From an uncultured delta proteobacterium (GTDB lineage Bacteria; Desulfobacterota; Syntrophobacteria; BM002): a stretch of 64,000 nt of DNA. The notes under the pieces are model-generated. The model was not told the origin of the DNA and did not search any database. It was given only the letters and a program-made list of their open reading frames with translations. The position numbers and the translations under genes were made by a program. The stretch covers positions 96,001 through 160,000 of the forward strand of contig CAVQGX010000032.1 of assembly GCA_963712115.1 (NCBI GenBank). The letters are read 5' to 3'. Below, piece by piece: positions 20,194-23,696 of the stretch. Position 1 is the stretch's first letter; each line of letters opens with the position of its first letter.

Positions 20194-20220
20194 TTAGCAC
20201 TCATGTCTAAGGAGTGCTAA
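20194..20220. promoter_or_regulatory. CIRCE element (HrcA operator)
   Basis: Exact TTAGCACTC-N9-GAGTGCTAA directly upstream of hrcA. Confidence 0.97.
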
Positions 20221-20222
20221 GG

Positions 20223-20251
20223 AAATTAGCAATCGGTCGATCCTTTGTCAA
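20223..20251 (-). promoter_or_regulatory. sigma70 promoter of hrcA
   Basis: TTGACA-17 nt-TAATTT with an extended -10 TG, ending 2 nt before the CIRCE. Confidence 0.8.
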
Positions 20252-20313
20252 GACTCAAATAGTGCGCATCTGGGCAAATACATAAGGTTGAACTTAGTTT
20301 CTCCATTAGCCCC

Positions 20314-20353
20314 AAAAAAAAGACCGTCTGGACGGGGCCACATCCAGGCGGTC
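20314..20353 (-). terminator. Intrinsic terminator of the candidate sRNA
   Basis: GACCGCCTGGA...TCCAGACGGTC stem (one mismatch) followed by 8 T. Confidence 0.85.
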
Positions 20354-20434
20354 GGAGAAAGGAGAAAAAGAGTTGAAGAGTCAAGAAGGCAGGGCTTTCA
20401 TCATTATGTTAACCTTACCATCCTTACTCGTTTC
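20314..20434 (-). ncRNA. Candidate sigma54-dependent small RNA (~120 nt)
   Basis: Bounded by a -24/-12 promoter and an intrinsic terminator; no ORF longer than 7 codons; CU-rich tract CUCUUUUUCUCCUUUCUCC just before the terminator. Confidence 0.65.
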
Positions 20435-20443
20435 TACAATGAT

Positions 20444-20459
20444 AGCAAATTCCTTGCCA
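20444..20459 (-). promoter_or_regulatory. sigma54 (-24/-12) promoter
   Basis: TGGCAAGGAATTTGCT, exact GG-N10-GC spacing. Confidence 0.75.
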
Positions 20460-20555
20460 TTGCAACCCGTGGATTGCATATTTATATCATATTGAAAAAG
20501 CTAATATTTTTTTTACTACTATCTACAACTTTTTAAATTAACTACCTGTGGAATG

Positions 20556-20600
20556 CATAATCAGGACATAATCCGGACATAATCCGGACATAATCCGGAC
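20556..20600. repeat. Four tandem 11-bp direct repeats, candidate enhancer (UAS)
   Basis: CATAATCAGGA followed by CATAATCCGGA x3, abutting the regulator stop codon, about 100-140 bp upstream of the -24 element. Confidence 0.85.
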
Positions 20601-22045
20601 TATTTGAGAACATATCGAGTGCTCCGACCTCCGCCAACTCTTGCCACTATCTCCATTTCCACCAGCTGACTCAGATCACGTCGGGCATGGCGATCGGAAA
20701 TTTGGTTGATTTGGATATAGTAGTCGTTGGTTATATAACCGTTTTTCCTTATGAAATTTATTGCTTTGACTTGGCGTGAATTCAGACCAAGATAGGGGAG
20801 CAAATCCCCAGATCCGTTCAGCTCTGGTCCTTTCAGGGCTTCCTCCGATGGTATGTCAGTGATCCCTGGAAGTCTTTTCTGTAATAACTCTTCCGCTAAG
20901 TCCTGGGGCCGAATTTCGTTACCGTCGCAGAGAATTACTGCCCGTTCAATGACATTCTCTAGTTCGCGGACGTTACCTAACCAGTCATACTGGTAAAAAT
21001 ACTTAATTGCCTCATGGCTTACATTTTTTAATGGAAGCCCGTTGGCCTTGGCCACCTTTCTGAGAAAATGGTGAACCAAAAGTGGTATGTCATCACGCCG
21101 TTCTCTGAGGGGGGGAATGTTGATGTGGACAACCTTCAAACGATAATACAAATCCTCCCTGAAACGTCCGAGCTCCACCTCCCGCTTGAGATCACGGTTG
21201 GAAGCGGCTACCAAGCGAGCATCCACCTGCAAGGTCACAGTACCGCCCACACGCTCAAATCTCATTTCCTGCAGAACCCTTAGTAACTTCACTTGCAGAG
21301 CAGGAGACATATCACCTACTTCGTCCAAGAATAAGGTTCCGTTATGAGCCAGCTCGAAACGACCTTTTCGTCTAGTGACAGCCCCGGTAAATGCACCCCT
21401 CTCGTGGCCAAAAAGCTCGCTCTCCAGCAGCGTTTCAGGTAAAGCTGAACAGTTAACCGAAACAAACGGTTTATCACTCCTGGGGCTGTTGAAATGTATA
21501 GCCCTGGCGATAAGTTCCTTGCCTGTACCTGACTCTCCGGTGATCAGCACTGATGCCCGTGTTTGCGCTACCTTCTCAATAATCTCATACACCTGGCGCA
21601 TGACCTTGCTTTTGCCCACAATGTTGCCGAACTTGAAGCGCTCCTGCAGTTCCTGGCTGAGCAAACGGTTCTCTTCCTTGAGCCGGTGCATCTCTAGGGC
21701 TTTACGGATGGTTAGTATCAGTTCTTCATTTTTGAAAGGCTTAGTAATGTAATCAAAAGCGCCCCGCTTCATAGCTTCCACAGCTTTTTCCACTGTGGCG
21801 TAGGCTGTCATCATGATCACAGGGATTTCCGGTTGAAGACCCCGCAATTGAACCAAAAACTCCATCCCGTCCACACCTGGCATCCTCATGTCAGTTATGA
21901 CCAGATCCAGGTCATGACTGGTTATAACCTCAAGAGCCTCACTGGCATTGTCACAGGTAATCACCTCATAACCCGCGTCTGCCAAGAGTACCTCTAGAAC
22001 CAGGAGATAATTCTTTTCGTCGTCAACGATGAGAATGGTTTCCAT
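20600..22045 (-). CDS. sigma54-dependent response regulator (REC-AAA+) with a C-terminal winged helix
   Basis: REC domain (VDDE, DMRMP), GESGTGKE, GAFTGA, FREDLYYRL, GNVRELEN; tail LNSRQVKAINFIRKNGYITN...RRDLSQLV...GGGRSTRY. Confidence 0.93.
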   Translation of the reverse strand: METILIVDDEKNYLLVLEVLLADAGYEVITCDNASEALEVITSHDLDLVITDMRMPGVDGMEFLVQLRGLQPEIPVIMMTAYATVEKAVEAMKRGAFDYITKPFKNEELILTIRKALEMHRLKEENRLLSQELQERFKFGNIVGKSKVMRQVYEIIEKVAQTRASVLITGESGTGKELIARAIHFNSPRSDKPFVSVNCSALPETLLESELFGHERGAFTGAVTRRKGRFELAHNGTLFLDEVGDMSPALQVKLLRVLQEMRFERVGGTVTLQVDARLVAASNRDLKREVELGRFREDLYYRLKVVHINIPPLRERRDDIPLLVHHFLRKVAKANGLPLKNVSHEAIKYFYQYDWLGNVRELENVIERAVILCDGNEIRPQDLAEELLQKRLPGITDIPSEEALKGPELNGSGDLLPYLGLNSRQVKAINFIRKNGYITNDYYIQINQISDRHARRDLSQLVEMEIVARVGGGRSTRYVLK

Positions 22046-22112
22046 GCTTTTCTCTTGATGTGCGACCTGACCGAGCAGTAATGTCTAACTTACAAATACC
22101 AAATTCCTAGCC

Positions 22113-22205
22113 ACCATGCATCACGCATGGAGCATAGGGCATGGGGCATGGAGTTAATATGTTGTTTATTTTTACGCTATGCTCCACGCTCCATGCGCCA
22201 TGCTA
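22113..22205. repeat. Inverted heptamer array
   Basis: GCATGGA/GCATAGG/GCATGGG/GCATGGA, an AT-rich spacer, then CGCTATG/CTCCACG/CTCCATG/CGCCATG. Confidence 0.8.
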
Positions 22206-22235
22206 ACTCTGCTTGCTGCCAGCTTTTCGCAGTGC

Positions 22236-23696
22236 CTAATGTTCTGGGTTCACCGGCAAAGCAATGATAATAGCTGTTCCTTTGCTCTCTAACTGCGAGA
22301 GCTCTTCCGGGGGTGGACTCTTGATATCGACCGTGCCTCCGTGGCTTTCGATTATGTTTCGGACTATGGGAAGTCCTAACCCGGTTCCTGTCTTGCGGGT
22401 AGTGAAGAAGGGATCGAATATTTTCCCTATATTATTCCCAGAAATACCACAACCGGTGTCCACTATGATGACCTCAAGGAAATCCTCTCGGGGGTCCCGA
22501 TACCGAGTTACTACCCGGATAGTGCCCCCATCGTCTAAAGCTTCCATGGCATTAACGAAGATGTTCAGAAAGGCGCGATAGAGAAGATCGCCATCGGCGA
22601 TGACTGGCCTGCCATTTTCGGCAAAGCGAAGTTCCACCCTTATGCCTCGTCGCTTGAGTTCAACCTCCAGGAACTTCAGGTTTCTTTCCAGAACCTCATC
22701 TACTCTGCATTCAGAGTAGTTCGGAGTGGTGGGACGGGCAAAATCCAGAAAATCAGTGACGATCGAGTTGAGACGACTAGTCTCCTCCATAATTATTTCA
22801 CCCAACTGTTTTTTGGGGTCATCCTCCTCCATTTTATGGTGTAGGAGTTGGGCGGTGGAACCAATGATTCCAAGTGGATTCCGGATCTCATGGCTGATGC
22901 CAGCCACCATCTTACCTAAGACAGCCATCCTCTCAGCCTGATTAAGCTGATCCTCCAAGCGGCGCCTCTCTTCGGCTCTTTTAGCGATGATCCTTTCTCC
23001 CCTCTTTACAATGAAACGTAAGACGAAAAACAGAAGACTCATCACCCCCAGAAAACTCGCGATAATTATGTTCTGGAAACGGGTGATGGCTGCATAATCC
23101 TCAGAGATATCTTGGGTAATTTCGAACACCCCCAGAATACGGCCATGGCCCCGCCCCAGAGGTCTTTCCATGCGAAATGGGATGTAAGTCTTGAGCTGCC
23201 TTTGCTTCGCCACTACTCCCAACTCGAAACCAAGAAAGCTTCCACGAGAAATCAGCTGGGATGAGGATTTGCCCTCCCGGGCCAACTTAAAATCGATTCC
23301 CCCCAACCCTGTGAGCCCAACTAAGGAACGATCGGTACTATAAGTAACCACCTCATTTATATCATAGACATCCACCCTGTATAGATTGAATCCGTGAATG
23401 GTGCTACTAACTACCTTGTCCATAAGATCATATTGTTTGGGGTTGGCAAGCTGTATCCGACCGTATTTGAGCACCGTGGGCAGGACAAATTGGGTGAAAA
23501 CTTGGTGGTTCAAGTTTGTGGCCACGAAGAGGGCGTATTGCTCGCTTTTTCTGAGAAGTTCGTTCTTGGCCCGTTGAGAGATGAAAATGGAGAGCAATAA
23601 GGTCGGGATGAAGATCACCACCAAACTGGTCAATGAAAAATACTTGACCAATCTAAAAGGCTTGATGCTTTCCCTGGCGTCCGCACCTAGCTGCAT
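22236..23696 (-). CDS. Membrane sensor histidine kinase
   Basis: Two TM segments, H-box SHEIRNPL, N-box NIFVNAMEA, DTGCG, FDPFFTT, GTGLGL. Confidence 0.93.
   Translation of the reverse strand: MQLGADARESIKPFRLVKYFSLTSLVVIFIPTLLLSIFISQRAKNELLRKSEQYALFVATNLNHQVFTQFVLPTVLKYGRIQLANPKQYDLMDKVVSSTIHGFNLYRVDVYDINEVVTYSTDRSLVGLTGLGGIDFKLAREGKSSSQLISRGSFLGFELGVVAKQRQLKTYIPFRMERPLGRGHGRILGVFEITQDISEDYAAITRFQNIIIASFLGVMSLLFFVLRFIVKRGERIIAKRAEERRRLEDQLNQAERMAVLGKMVAGISHEIRNPLGIIGSTAQLLHHKMEEDDPKKQLGEIIMEETSRLNSIVTDFLDFARPTTPNYSECRVDEVLERNLKFLEVELKRRGIRVELRFAENGRPVIADGDLLYRAFLNIFVNAMEALDDGGTIRVVTRYRDPREDFLEVIIVDTGCGISGNNIGKIFDPFFTTRKTGTGLGLPIVRNIIESHGGTVDIKSPPPEELSQLESKGTAIIIALPVNPEH

Follow-up and report, generated by a model that had tools for sequence, protein, structure and literature searches.

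A predicted sigma-54-dependent small RNA module adjoining a two-component gene pair in uncultured Syntrophobacterales-type bacteria

We analyzed a 64,000-nucleotide stretch of DNA from an uncultured delta proteobacterium (GenBank assembly GCA_963712115.1, contig CAVQGX010000032.1, forward-strand positions 96,001 to 160,000; hereafter the window), which is part of G000, a metagenome-assembled genome (MAG) of 4.9 Mb that is 94% complete with an estimated contamination of 6%. Sequence reading, the open reading frame (ORF) list and Pfam placed on its minus strand, in this order, the genes of a sensor histidine kinase and a sigma-54 activator, an array of 11-bp direct repeats, a -24/-12 promoter, a predicted CU-rich small RNA (sRNA) and an intrinsic terminator, with the promoter and the controlling inverted repeat of chaperone expression (CIRCE) of hrcA following on the same strand (Table 1). 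All of these features had been listed in an earlier, sequence-only reading of this DNA, and each was recovered where it had been placed, by means of the sequence, the ORF list, Pfam and Tandem Repeats Finder (TRF).

Table 1. Features of the module and of its downstream context, in coordinates of the window (UAS, upstream activating sequence; AF2, AlphaFold2; MFE, minimum free energy)
Feature	Position	Strand	Basis
Sensor histidine kinase, 486 aa	22236-23696	-	ORF; Pfam HisKA, HATPase_c
REC-AAA+ sigma-54 enhancer-binding response regulator, 481 aa	20600-22045	-	ORF; Pfam; translation
Predicted C-terminal winged helix of the activator, about residues 420-481, DIP2311-like/DeoR-like	20603-20788	-	Pfam on isolated domain, AF2, Foldseek
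Activator stop codon TAG	20602-20600	-	Sequence
Four tandem 11-bp direct repeats, probable enhancer (UAS)	20556-20599	-	TRF
AT-rich spacer with moderately conserved motif	20470-20555	-	GC content, alignment
Sigma-54 -24/-12 promoter TGGCAAGGAATTTGCT	20444-20459	-	Sequence, conservation
Predicted small RNA, ~120 nt, start inferred from promoter	20314-20433	-	Fold, covariance model
5' hairpin of the RNA	20378-20429	-	MFE fold, RNAalifold
CU-rich conserved core, 41 nt	20355-20395	-	Alignment of 14 congeners
Intrinsic terminator: 13-bp stem, GGCCCC loop, U8	20314-20353	-	Fold, covariation
hrcA sigma-70-type promoter (TTGACA ... TAATTT) and CIRCE, context outside the module	20194-20251	-	Sequence

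The kinase matched HisKA (E 7e-15) and HATPase_c (E 6e-22) in Pfam, and its residues 1-240 were modelled by AF2 as a pair of long membrane-spanning helices flanking one extracytoplasmic fold of the PAS/Cache-like (PDC) type (predicted local distance difference test, pLDDT, 79). The closest structure to this sensor in Foldseek was the extracellular domain of WalK (E 3.5e-7, target TM-score (TMt) 0.77), followed by DctB and CitA. The activator comprised Response_reg (residues 4-113, E 6e-33), Sigma54_activat (residues 142-308, E 1e-73) and AAA_lid_14, and the GAFTGA motif was intact in its translation, while the Fis-type helix-turn-helix (HTH) model HTH_8 gave no Pfam match at E<=0.01. In isolation, the last ~65 residues matched HTH_DeoR with 22.3 bits (cut-off 21) and DIP2311-like_C with 25.9 bits (cut-off 27), the latter model also being matched at E<=0.01 by 16 of the 25 aligned homologues. 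Based on this 25-sequence alignment AF2 predicted three helices (fragment residues 28-40, 45-52 and 56-68) and a beta-hairpin (72-75 and 82-85), with pLDDT above 90 for residues 30-86. The top Foldseek match was the DIP2311 C-terminal domain (3lmm; root-mean-square deviation 0.8 A over 58 residues, probability 1.00), for which the E value only reached about 4e-3 because the domain is small; further matches included MarR, Fic C-terminal domains and the centromere binders AspA and TubR. A sequence search of the PDB with the winged helix yielded nothing relevant. Pfam, AF2 and Foldseek thereby bear out the earlier assignment of a kinase and a REC-AAA+ activator in which a winged helix replaces the Fis-type HTH.

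The repeat array starts directly after the TAG of the activator gene with three copies of TCCGGATTATG and one of TCCTGATTATG (20599-20556). TRF scored it at 83 with a period of 11, 4.1 copies and 97% matches, and it sits at about -123 to -166 from the inferred RNA start. The CCGGATTAT array occurs a single time in the 4.9-Mb genome, which fits a dedicated regulator, and between three and five repeat copies are present in relatives. The adjoining spacer (GC content 0.22-0.25 over 20470-20559) contains the moderately conserved motif TTTCAA-N3-GATA-N-AAAT at ~20470-20499 and might have a role in DNA bending; judged by eye, nothing there fits the E. coli consensus for integration host factor (IHF). 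The promoter (20459-20444) reads TGGCA-N6-TTGCT with the canonical GG/GC spacing (GG-N10-GC). TGGCA-N6-TTGCW was found 121 times in the genome, as compared to 33-51 times for the N4, N5, N7 and N8 spacings and nine times for the reversed pattern. The genome thus uses sigma-54 heavily, with the N6-spaced promoter class being strongly over-represented, and rpoN is present (two Sigma54_DBD matches in G000). Two full-length rpoN-like ORFs of 493 and 511 aa were noted at G000:C17:13955-14431 and C58:2538-3014, which could reflect a true paralogue or a contaminant contig.

The MFE fold of the predicted RNA (-41 kcal/mol, z -2.9, with one of 200 shuffles being equally stable) consists of a 5' hairpin, an unpaired CU-rich tract and the terminator. 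In the hairpin the purine-rich 5' arm GAGUAAGGAUGGUAAGG pairs with the start of the CU-rich block, and the single-stranded part at ~20354-20377 reads UUCAACUCUUUUUCUCCUUUCUCC. Compensatory changes were observed in seven of the 13 terminator pairs, a degree of covariation that 0 of 500 shuffles matched and that slid controls stayed far below, while the GGCCCC loop was invariant in 19/19 sequences. This hairpin is the sole terminator-like site between the activator stop codon and hrcA on the minus strand; as read from the sequence, it must also serve the kinase-activator operon. None of the 4227 models of Rfam 15, including Qrr, CrcZ and GlmY, gave a match overlapping 20314-20433 at E<=10.

Conservation across the locus was followed as the mean column identity among 14 congeners. 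From 0.84 at the end of the activator gene and 0.89 in the repeats, identity fell to 0.62 in the spacer, with 0.77 in the region of its AT-rich motif, and rose to 0.97 in the -24/-12 box, where 13 of the 16 columns were invariant. Identity was 0.63 over the 10 nt separating the box from the inferred start and 0.81 in the 5' arm and loop of the RNA, followed by 0.97 in the CU-rich core (34 of 41 columns invariant), 0.91 in the terminator and 0.27 in the 33 nt beyond it. The repeats, the -24/-12 box and the CU core are therefore islands in a poorly conserved intergenic region and are maintained by selection. The sequence-only reading had proposed to look for the box, the CU tract and the terminator in relatives, and all three were conserved there; its claim of an unannotated RNA also stands, inasmuch as the RNA is conserved, structured and devoid of an Rfam match.

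Of the 17 other genomes of the genus, 14 gave an end-to-end alignment of the 321-bp region, with identities of 73-86%. In G007 the promoter-RNA part alone aligned, and the two genomes of the genus without the RNA were uninformative (a 100-N scaffold gap after activator codon 269 in G011, and DNA ending inside the locus in G004). Outside the genus, the alignable portion was limited to the CU tract and the terminator (G018, G020, G021, G024 and G026). A covariance model, R1, built from 19 of these RNAs and run on 122 genomes of the class, detected the RNA in 21 of them, mostly as one copy per genome; by family, detection amounted to 18/21 in f1, 2/3 in f4, 0/1 in f2, 0/6 in f3, 0/9 in f5 and 0/81 in f6. 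The order kinase, activator, repeats, promoter and RNA was found in 20 of the 21 related loci, spanning two families of uncultured Syntrophobacterales-type MAGs. An activator with the same C-terminus ended 147-244 nt 5' of the RNA in 20/21 loci, the kinase preceded it in 15/20, i.e. wherever the flank reaches far enough, and the -24/-12 box was kept in 19/20, including those in other genera whose surroundings are not alignable. The exception was G021, with neither the box nor an activator gene upstream. G013 carries two activator-repeats-promoter-RNA units ~64 kb apart (C1:2457324-2457445 and 2521293-2521413), with hrcA after one of them. When 185,579 species, each represented by one genome, were scanned for exact copies of the core, 43 loci were obtained, of which 19 matched R1 at 67-141 bits, two weakly at 24-33 bits and 22 not at all. 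All 19 strong loci came from MAGs labelled Syntrophobacterales, Syntrophobacteria, Deltaproteobacteria or Desulfobacter*.

The activator of G007 is 92.9% identical to that of the window over REC and AAA+ and 58.5% identical over the winged helix, the recognition-helix region reading VMKTQAKTEL in G007 and ISDRHARRDL in the window. The repeats likewise differ, being CCGACCGATTA in G007 and TCCGGATTATG in the window, while promoter and RNA of G007 are still 90% identical. The G007-type helix recurs in another genus (G018) together with GACCGATTA repeats, and family f4 retains a SDRHGRRE helix together with CCGGATTAT repeats. Since winged helix and repeats were exchanged together in G007, this natural exchange is the strongest argument that the activator's winged helix reads the 11-bp repeats. 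Along with their conservation, the co-variation with the winged helix supports the repeats as the probable enhancer, as they had been called earlier.

Taken together, we consider it probable that the locus is a two-component, sigma-54-dependent small-RNA module, in which the kinase and the activator most likely switch on the adjoining RNA gene. In such a module the membrane kinase would sense through its extracytoplasmic PAS/Cache-type domain and phosphorylate the REC-AAA+ activator. The winged helix of the latter would bind the three to five tandem 11-bp repeats that start at the stop codon of the activator gene. With a period of 11 bp these sites all point to the same side of the double helix, and the activator would then, across the AT-rich spacer, remodel sigma-54 RNA polymerase held at TGGCA-N6-TTGCT. 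The product would be an RNA of ~120 nt with the 5' hairpin, the single-stranded CU-rich tract and the intrinsic terminator, which it would share with read-through kinase-activator mRNA. The start at 20433, the dependence on the activator, the action in trans and the targets are what we infer from this arrangement. The CU tract is most likely the working part, which, without an Hfq found, would pair with purine-rich Shine-Dalgarno (SD) regions and lower translation initiation. Hfq was detected in none of the 18 genus genomes (0/18), while control genomes responded to the same search. The 16S rRNA ends in ...GGAUCACCUCCUUUCU and the unpaired tract of the RNA holds its last nine bases, CUCCUUUCU, which makes it able to pair with those purine-rich sites that the ribosome itself pairs with. 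In addition, the CU tract shares the 15-nt stretch CUCUUUUUCUCCUUU with the unpaired part of a second sigma-54 RNA candidate in the same genome (G000:C44:14175-14300, plus strand; counterpart L190 in G002), and this sharing does speak for a functional seed. The C44 RNA is differently built (R1 score 23.5 bits), with TGGCACTGGGTTTGCA, a 5' hairpin of its own, AAGAUAGCUCUUUUUCUCCUUUUUCUUG and a CCCCCAUUGG...GGGGG terminator in succession. A sigma-54 promoter of its own precedes it, and no operon lies upstream.

Several findings weigh against this interpretation, beginning with the distribution of its parts. The kinase sensor domain was present as a single copy in all 31 class genomes searched (31/31) and adjoined a winged-helix activator wherever checked, so that the two-component pair is older than the RNA as detected here. 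Families f3, f5 and f6 possess both kinase and winged-helix activator but lack repeats, -24/-12 box and RNA nearby, from which it follows that the pair has, or once had, another output. The 11 activators of these families carry the winged helix, arrays of at least four copies were seen at none of them (0/11), and no -24/-12 box was found within ~3 kb. Both-side changes in the 5' hairpin were limited to one of ten pairs and the stem rests mainly on energy; as the hairpin is nearly invariant, the alignment is of little help in judging it.

The expression data add to these points. They consist of assembled contigs of four RNA runs, which are unable to show 5' ends. In two metatranscriptome runs from two studies (X16 and X19), contigs covered the RNA together with the promoter and the downstream spacer, extending 32-57 nt 5' of the predicted start into the promoter sequence of a relative and 45-73 nt beyond the terminator, at a depth of 3.5-4.8 similar to that of neighbouring genes. 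These contigs are read-through mRNA or DNA carry-over rather than the sRNA. Because no separate terminator follows the activator gene, transcripts of the operon are expected to extend across the RNA region, which would explain the bridging, and DNA carry-over is equally possible. The RNA was uncovered in X15 and X18, which were uninformative, and short high-depth contigs over the repeats were k-mer artefacts. For the discrete transcript that the sequence-only reading had proposed, the contigs thus provide neither support nor a verdict either way.

The search for particular targets was likewise unfavourable. Start regions (n=4708) were crude ORF picks biased to SD-containing starts. With RNAduplex and a 35-nt seed, 360 of them reached -22 kcal/mol or lower, as compared to 393 with the reversed seed and 213-344 with shuffles. 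In most of the 18 genomes, sites with up to three mismatches to the 19-nt complement were about as frequent as those of the reversed pattern. In favour of pairing, contiguous complements of at least 11 nt were in excess (21, with reversed or shuffled cores yielding 7, 12, 6, 2 and 7), and all 21 centred on the generic ribosome-binding motif AAGGAGAAAA. The best start-region matches, on C4 (16 nt) and C27 (14 nt), belong to a pentapeptide-repeat protein and a pirin-like protein; they are lost in homologues (G002, G008, G013, G014 and G018) and were dismissed as chance. Among the neighbouring genes, the dnaK start ranked at the 3.4th percentile and those of hrcA, grpE, the activator and the kinase above the 9th, which is unremarkable. 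No mRNA partner with conserved complementarity was found among the start regions, the complementarity to ribosome-binding sites (RBS) being generic. Occlusion of the RBS of particular mRNAs, with the dnaK leader named as a possible partner, had been suggested by the sequence-only reading; this part gained no support, since duplex energies equalled those of controls, the two best matches were not conserved and the dnaK leader was only within the top 3.4%.

The genes beyond the terminator suggest another role for the promoter. hrcA has a TTGACA element at 20251-20246 and, at 20220-20194, TTAGCACTC-N9-GAGTGCTAA, a perfect copy of the CIRCE consensus; grpE and dnaK come next (Pfam HrcA, GrpE and HSP70). 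In 15 of 20 loci, from three genera of f1, hrcA follows the RNA on the same strand, 96-598 nt beyond the terminator, with three further loci being too short to tell. This synteny would permit a connection with the heat-shock operon and counts against a fully independent module. The sigma-54 promoter could then be a second, signal-dependent promoter of hrcA-grpE-dnaK, with the RNA as its leader and the hairpin as an attenuator that is read through conditionally. The sigma-54 activator/kinase pair HsfA/HsfB reportedly controls a Myxococcus heat-shock gene, which also counts in favour of a leader. We nevertheless regard this role as quite unlikely. hrcA has its own TTGACA promoter and a perfect CIRCE in 15/15 loci in which it follows, neither the sequence (0.27) nor the length of the gap to hrcA is conserved, and the strong terminator (13-bp stem, U8) is kept with covariation, all of which makes a leader or attenuator less likely. 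Furthermore, the RNA is conserved where other neighbours take the place of hrcA, as at the second copy in G013 and at the f4 locus in G024; in the latter, a convergent ORF ends 36 nt beyond the RNA, which hence cannot be a leader there. The hrcA start region also showed no consistent complementarity to the RNA (z -0.1 to -3.1 with shifting positions). The claimed separateness of the module from hrcA holds with respect to the promoter and CIRCE of hrcA, but not in full: the position of hrcA in 15/20 loci makes independence of context incomplete, and the terminator is shared with the kinase-activator mRNA.

Given that neither a conserved specific target nor Hfq was found, the RNA might instead act as a decoy, its anti-SD look-alike or pyrimidine tract titrating a protein (e.g. 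a KH/CSD protein or ribosomal protein S1), or compete broadly with 16S rRNA at strong SD sites without particular mRNAs. Invariance at 34 of the 41 core positions exceeds what one short seed needs, and the nine nucleotides shared with the 16S tail as well as the generic centre of the excess complements would suit such a role. A candidate binding protein was not identified, however, a single-copy 120-nt RNA would need great abundance to compete with ribosomes, and the same data fit a base-pairing sRNA with multiple targets, so that we consider this role unlikely. It is very improbable that there is no RNA gene at all, with the hairpin as mere operon terminator, the CU block as a conserved element of the 3' untranslated region and the -24/-12 match unused. 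The hairpin is indeed the sole terminator after the activator gene and contigs bridge the promoter, but the 16-nt box stands at 0.97 between flanks of 0.63-0.69 and is kept in nearly all loci, the repeats sit at a typical enhancer distance with no other promoter to serve, and the C44 sibling with the same tract has a sigma-54 promoter of its own and no operon upstream. That the region encodes a small protein is hardly credible. Candidates would be the seven-codon MMKALPS on the minus strand, which follows an AAGG motif, or the overlapping ORFs of 82 or 52 aa (ORFs are listed at 20226-20384 on the minus strand and at 20288-20536 and 20373-20495 on the plus strand). In L011, L015 and L016 the seven-codon ORF lacks its start codon, and loop indels are not multiples of three, which together identify the region as non-coding; codon periodicity is absent from the conservation, and the long ORFs extend over the terminator and the unconserved spacer.

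Beyond the two-component sRNA module itself, a wider view can be offered tentatively and with considerable doubt. The RNA could belong to a set of sigma-54-driven RNAs that resemble the anti-Shine-Dalgarno sequence and throttle initiation by competing with the 16S tail at strong RBSs in a lineage in which no Hfq was found, and its enhancer a portable cassette of a DIP2311-type winged helix and a tandem operator array at its own stop codon. This cassette would also occur on Fic and AlbA_2/HATPase_c_4 proteins across the phylum and would here have been grafted onto a sigma-54 activator and, in one species, swapped within it. The notion of a set derives from the 15 nt shared with the C44 RNA and the nine nt shared with the 16S 3' end. 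As to the cassette, 17 phylum proteins that end in the same winged helix are non-activators, and the 12 of these scanned with Pfam comprised seven with AlbA_2 and HATPase_c_4, three with HATPase_c_4 but not AlbA_2, and two Fic proteins. At least four copies of a 6-mer at ~11-nt spacing were found within 80 nt of the stop codon in 7/17 non-activators as compared to 79/4699 control genes; a tandem scan with a fixed period, which could not accommodate spacings of 10-12 nt as the spaced 6-mer test does, had detected arrays at 2/28 winged-helix loci. Similar recognition helices went along with similar repeats, as for LSDEGA with TTGGCGATT in both AlbA_2 and Fic contexts.

A number of additional observations were made on these elements. 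Eleven sites on G000 contigs outside the window (C3:110132, C3:124975, C5:12488, C9:28971(-), C11:63142, C37:33156, C37:101655, C42:183439(-), C44:14175, C58:1259(-) and C66:28854) belong to a multi-copy family of candidate sigma-54 RNAs of ~80-110 nt. The build of this family is a promoter TGGCA[CT]NNNGTTTGCA, a 5' hairpin GGGGUGAGC...GCUCACCC and a terminator CCCCCAUYGG...CCRAUGGGGG preceded by a variable unpaired part, for which C5, C11 and C44 at least show a CU-rich composition. Of 14 promoter matches, about 11 conform to this build, several directly behind the terminator of the previous unit, and no Rfam match above threshold was obtained for the family. A diverged second copy of the RNA, L051 (G010:C116:3803-3889, R1 44 bits), lies behind the sigma-54 box TGGTACCATCTTTGCA and has no activator upstream; its Rfam matches to sX13 (28 vs 50 bits) and atoC RNA (24.5 vs 50) were below threshold. 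In other Desulfobacterota, genes for proteins with AlbA_2 and/or HATPase_c_4, or with Fic, and this winged helix at the end (loci L102, L109, L112, L114, L116 and L118-L126) often show three to six direct repeats at ~11-nt spacing from or just after the stop codon. Among crude gene predictions of G000, 70/4695 were followed within 90 nt of the stop by a tandem array of at least three copies (period 9-13 nt, mostly 9), with units including GTTCAAGTC, CGTTGAAAT and TCACAGAGA, far more than the few expected by a rough estimate of chance. Kinase/winged-helix pairs without the RNA module nearby were seen in f2, f3, f5 and f6 (e.g. L099-L113, L165 and L166). The sole kinase-sensor match in G002 (C1:652689-653396, 99% identical to that of the window, in a 317-aa open frame) lies 1.8 Mb from the activator-RNA locus (~2.43 Mb), which may be an assembly or binning oddity. 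The intergenic region between kinase and activator (22046-22235, minus strand) contains a long imperfect inverted repeat of 7-bp units (TRF 22125-22153 and 22179-22204); in relatives its length and content vary, and some have other inverted-repeat insertions. A second promoter look-alike in this region, TGGCTAGGAATTTGGTA, was discarded, as it is present in the window alone and degenerate in G002.

Activator genes followed by their own sigma-54-dependent sRNA have already been described in Myxococcus and Desulfovibrio. The Pxr/Nla19 (PxrR) system of Myxococcus xanthus and relatives, with PxrK as kinase partner, shares with the module the layout of an sRNA gene right behind a sigma-54 regulator gene. 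The parallel to pxr and nla19 drawn in the sequence-only reading holds, since pxr (~110 nt) is described as intergenic, directly 3' of the sigma-54 response-regulator gene nla19 and equipped with an apparent sigma-54 promoter, and Pxr as a multi-stem-loop structure with a terminator (PMC5568312); its direct targets are called still uncharacterised in PMC11928866. The RNA of the window shows no detectable homology to Pxr, including no Rfam match at E<=10 (the presence of a Pxr model there being unverified), belongs to a different host lineage and has one 5' hairpin and a long single-stranded CU tract, while its activator, unlike Nla19, combines a winged helix with a tandem direct-repeat enhancer. 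In Desulfovibrio vulgaris, where DVU0679 and DVU0653 are two-component sigma-54 response regulators, DVU0679 is reported to bind upstream of Dv_sRNA2, just 3' of its own gene, with binding determined by DAP-chip and expression by tiling arrays, and DVU0653 to target an ncRNA downstream of its own gene (PMC3333781; PMC4641369, Table 1). As all D. vulgaris activators but one are stated to carry a Fis-type HTH (PMC4641369), DVU0679 and DVU0653 would be Fis-type, so that the layout is the same and the DNA-binding domain differs, as compared by description rather than by sequence. DVU0151, whose C-terminal domain is reported to match a winged-helix model instead of Fis (PMC4641369), resembles our activator in this replacement, again by description. 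It differs in being a one-component protein with GAFSEA and no REC, divergent from a transporter operon and without an sRNA target.

Two-component or phosphorelay sigma-54 activators with a small RNA as output are also known from Gammaproteobacteria, CbrB-CrcZ being a functional analogue. In LuxO-Qrr and GlrR-GlmY the sRNA is likewise described as the main or only output and is often adjacent (PMC10162802, PMC3045617). LuxO, CbrB and GlrR use a Fis-type HTH on inverted repeats, whereas a winged helix on direct repeats is predicted here. Qrr requires Hfq, which contrasts with the 0/18 genomes above, and CrcZ and GlmY act as protein decoys whose Rfam models do not match the present RNA. In bacteria that lack Hfq or do not depend on it for these RNAs, unpaired C- or CU-rich stretches, often in loops such as that of the terminator, pair with G-rich RBS regions, as in RepG of Helicobacter, sX13 of Xanthomonas and RsaE/RoxS of Firmicutes. 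The single-stranded CU tract and the invariant GGCCCC terminator loop resemble these RNAs; homology is lacking, the sub-threshold sX13 match concerning the different RNA in G010, and we know of none of them that is sigma-54-dependent. Our literature search for Syntrophobacterales sigma-54 small RNAs, enhancer-binding proteins with a winged helix and direct repeats, and DIP2311 found no description of such a system in the literature covered. New are the RNA family itself and its anti-SD-like CU tract in a lineage in which no Hfq was found. Also new are a receiver-type activator with a putative DIP2311-type winged helix on tandem 11-bp direct repeats at its own stop codon, and the exchange of domain and site as one unit.

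To our knowledge, post-transcriptional control has not been described before in uncultured bacteria of the Syntrophobacterales type, be they syntrophic or sulfate-reducing. The locus provides a concrete, testable circuit of one kinase, one activator, one enhancer and one RNA, with cis elements defined to the base and a natural domain-and-site swap as a built-in control. A sigma-54 activator would here act from tandem direct repeats by way of a winged helix, as opposed to the textbook Fis-type HTH on inverted repeats, and winged-helix activators escape regulon reconstruction based on Fis-type DNA-binding domains. If the CU tract is indeed a general anti-SD competitor common to several sigma-54 RNAs, these bacteria would possess an unusual coupling of envelope or stress sensing to global translation.

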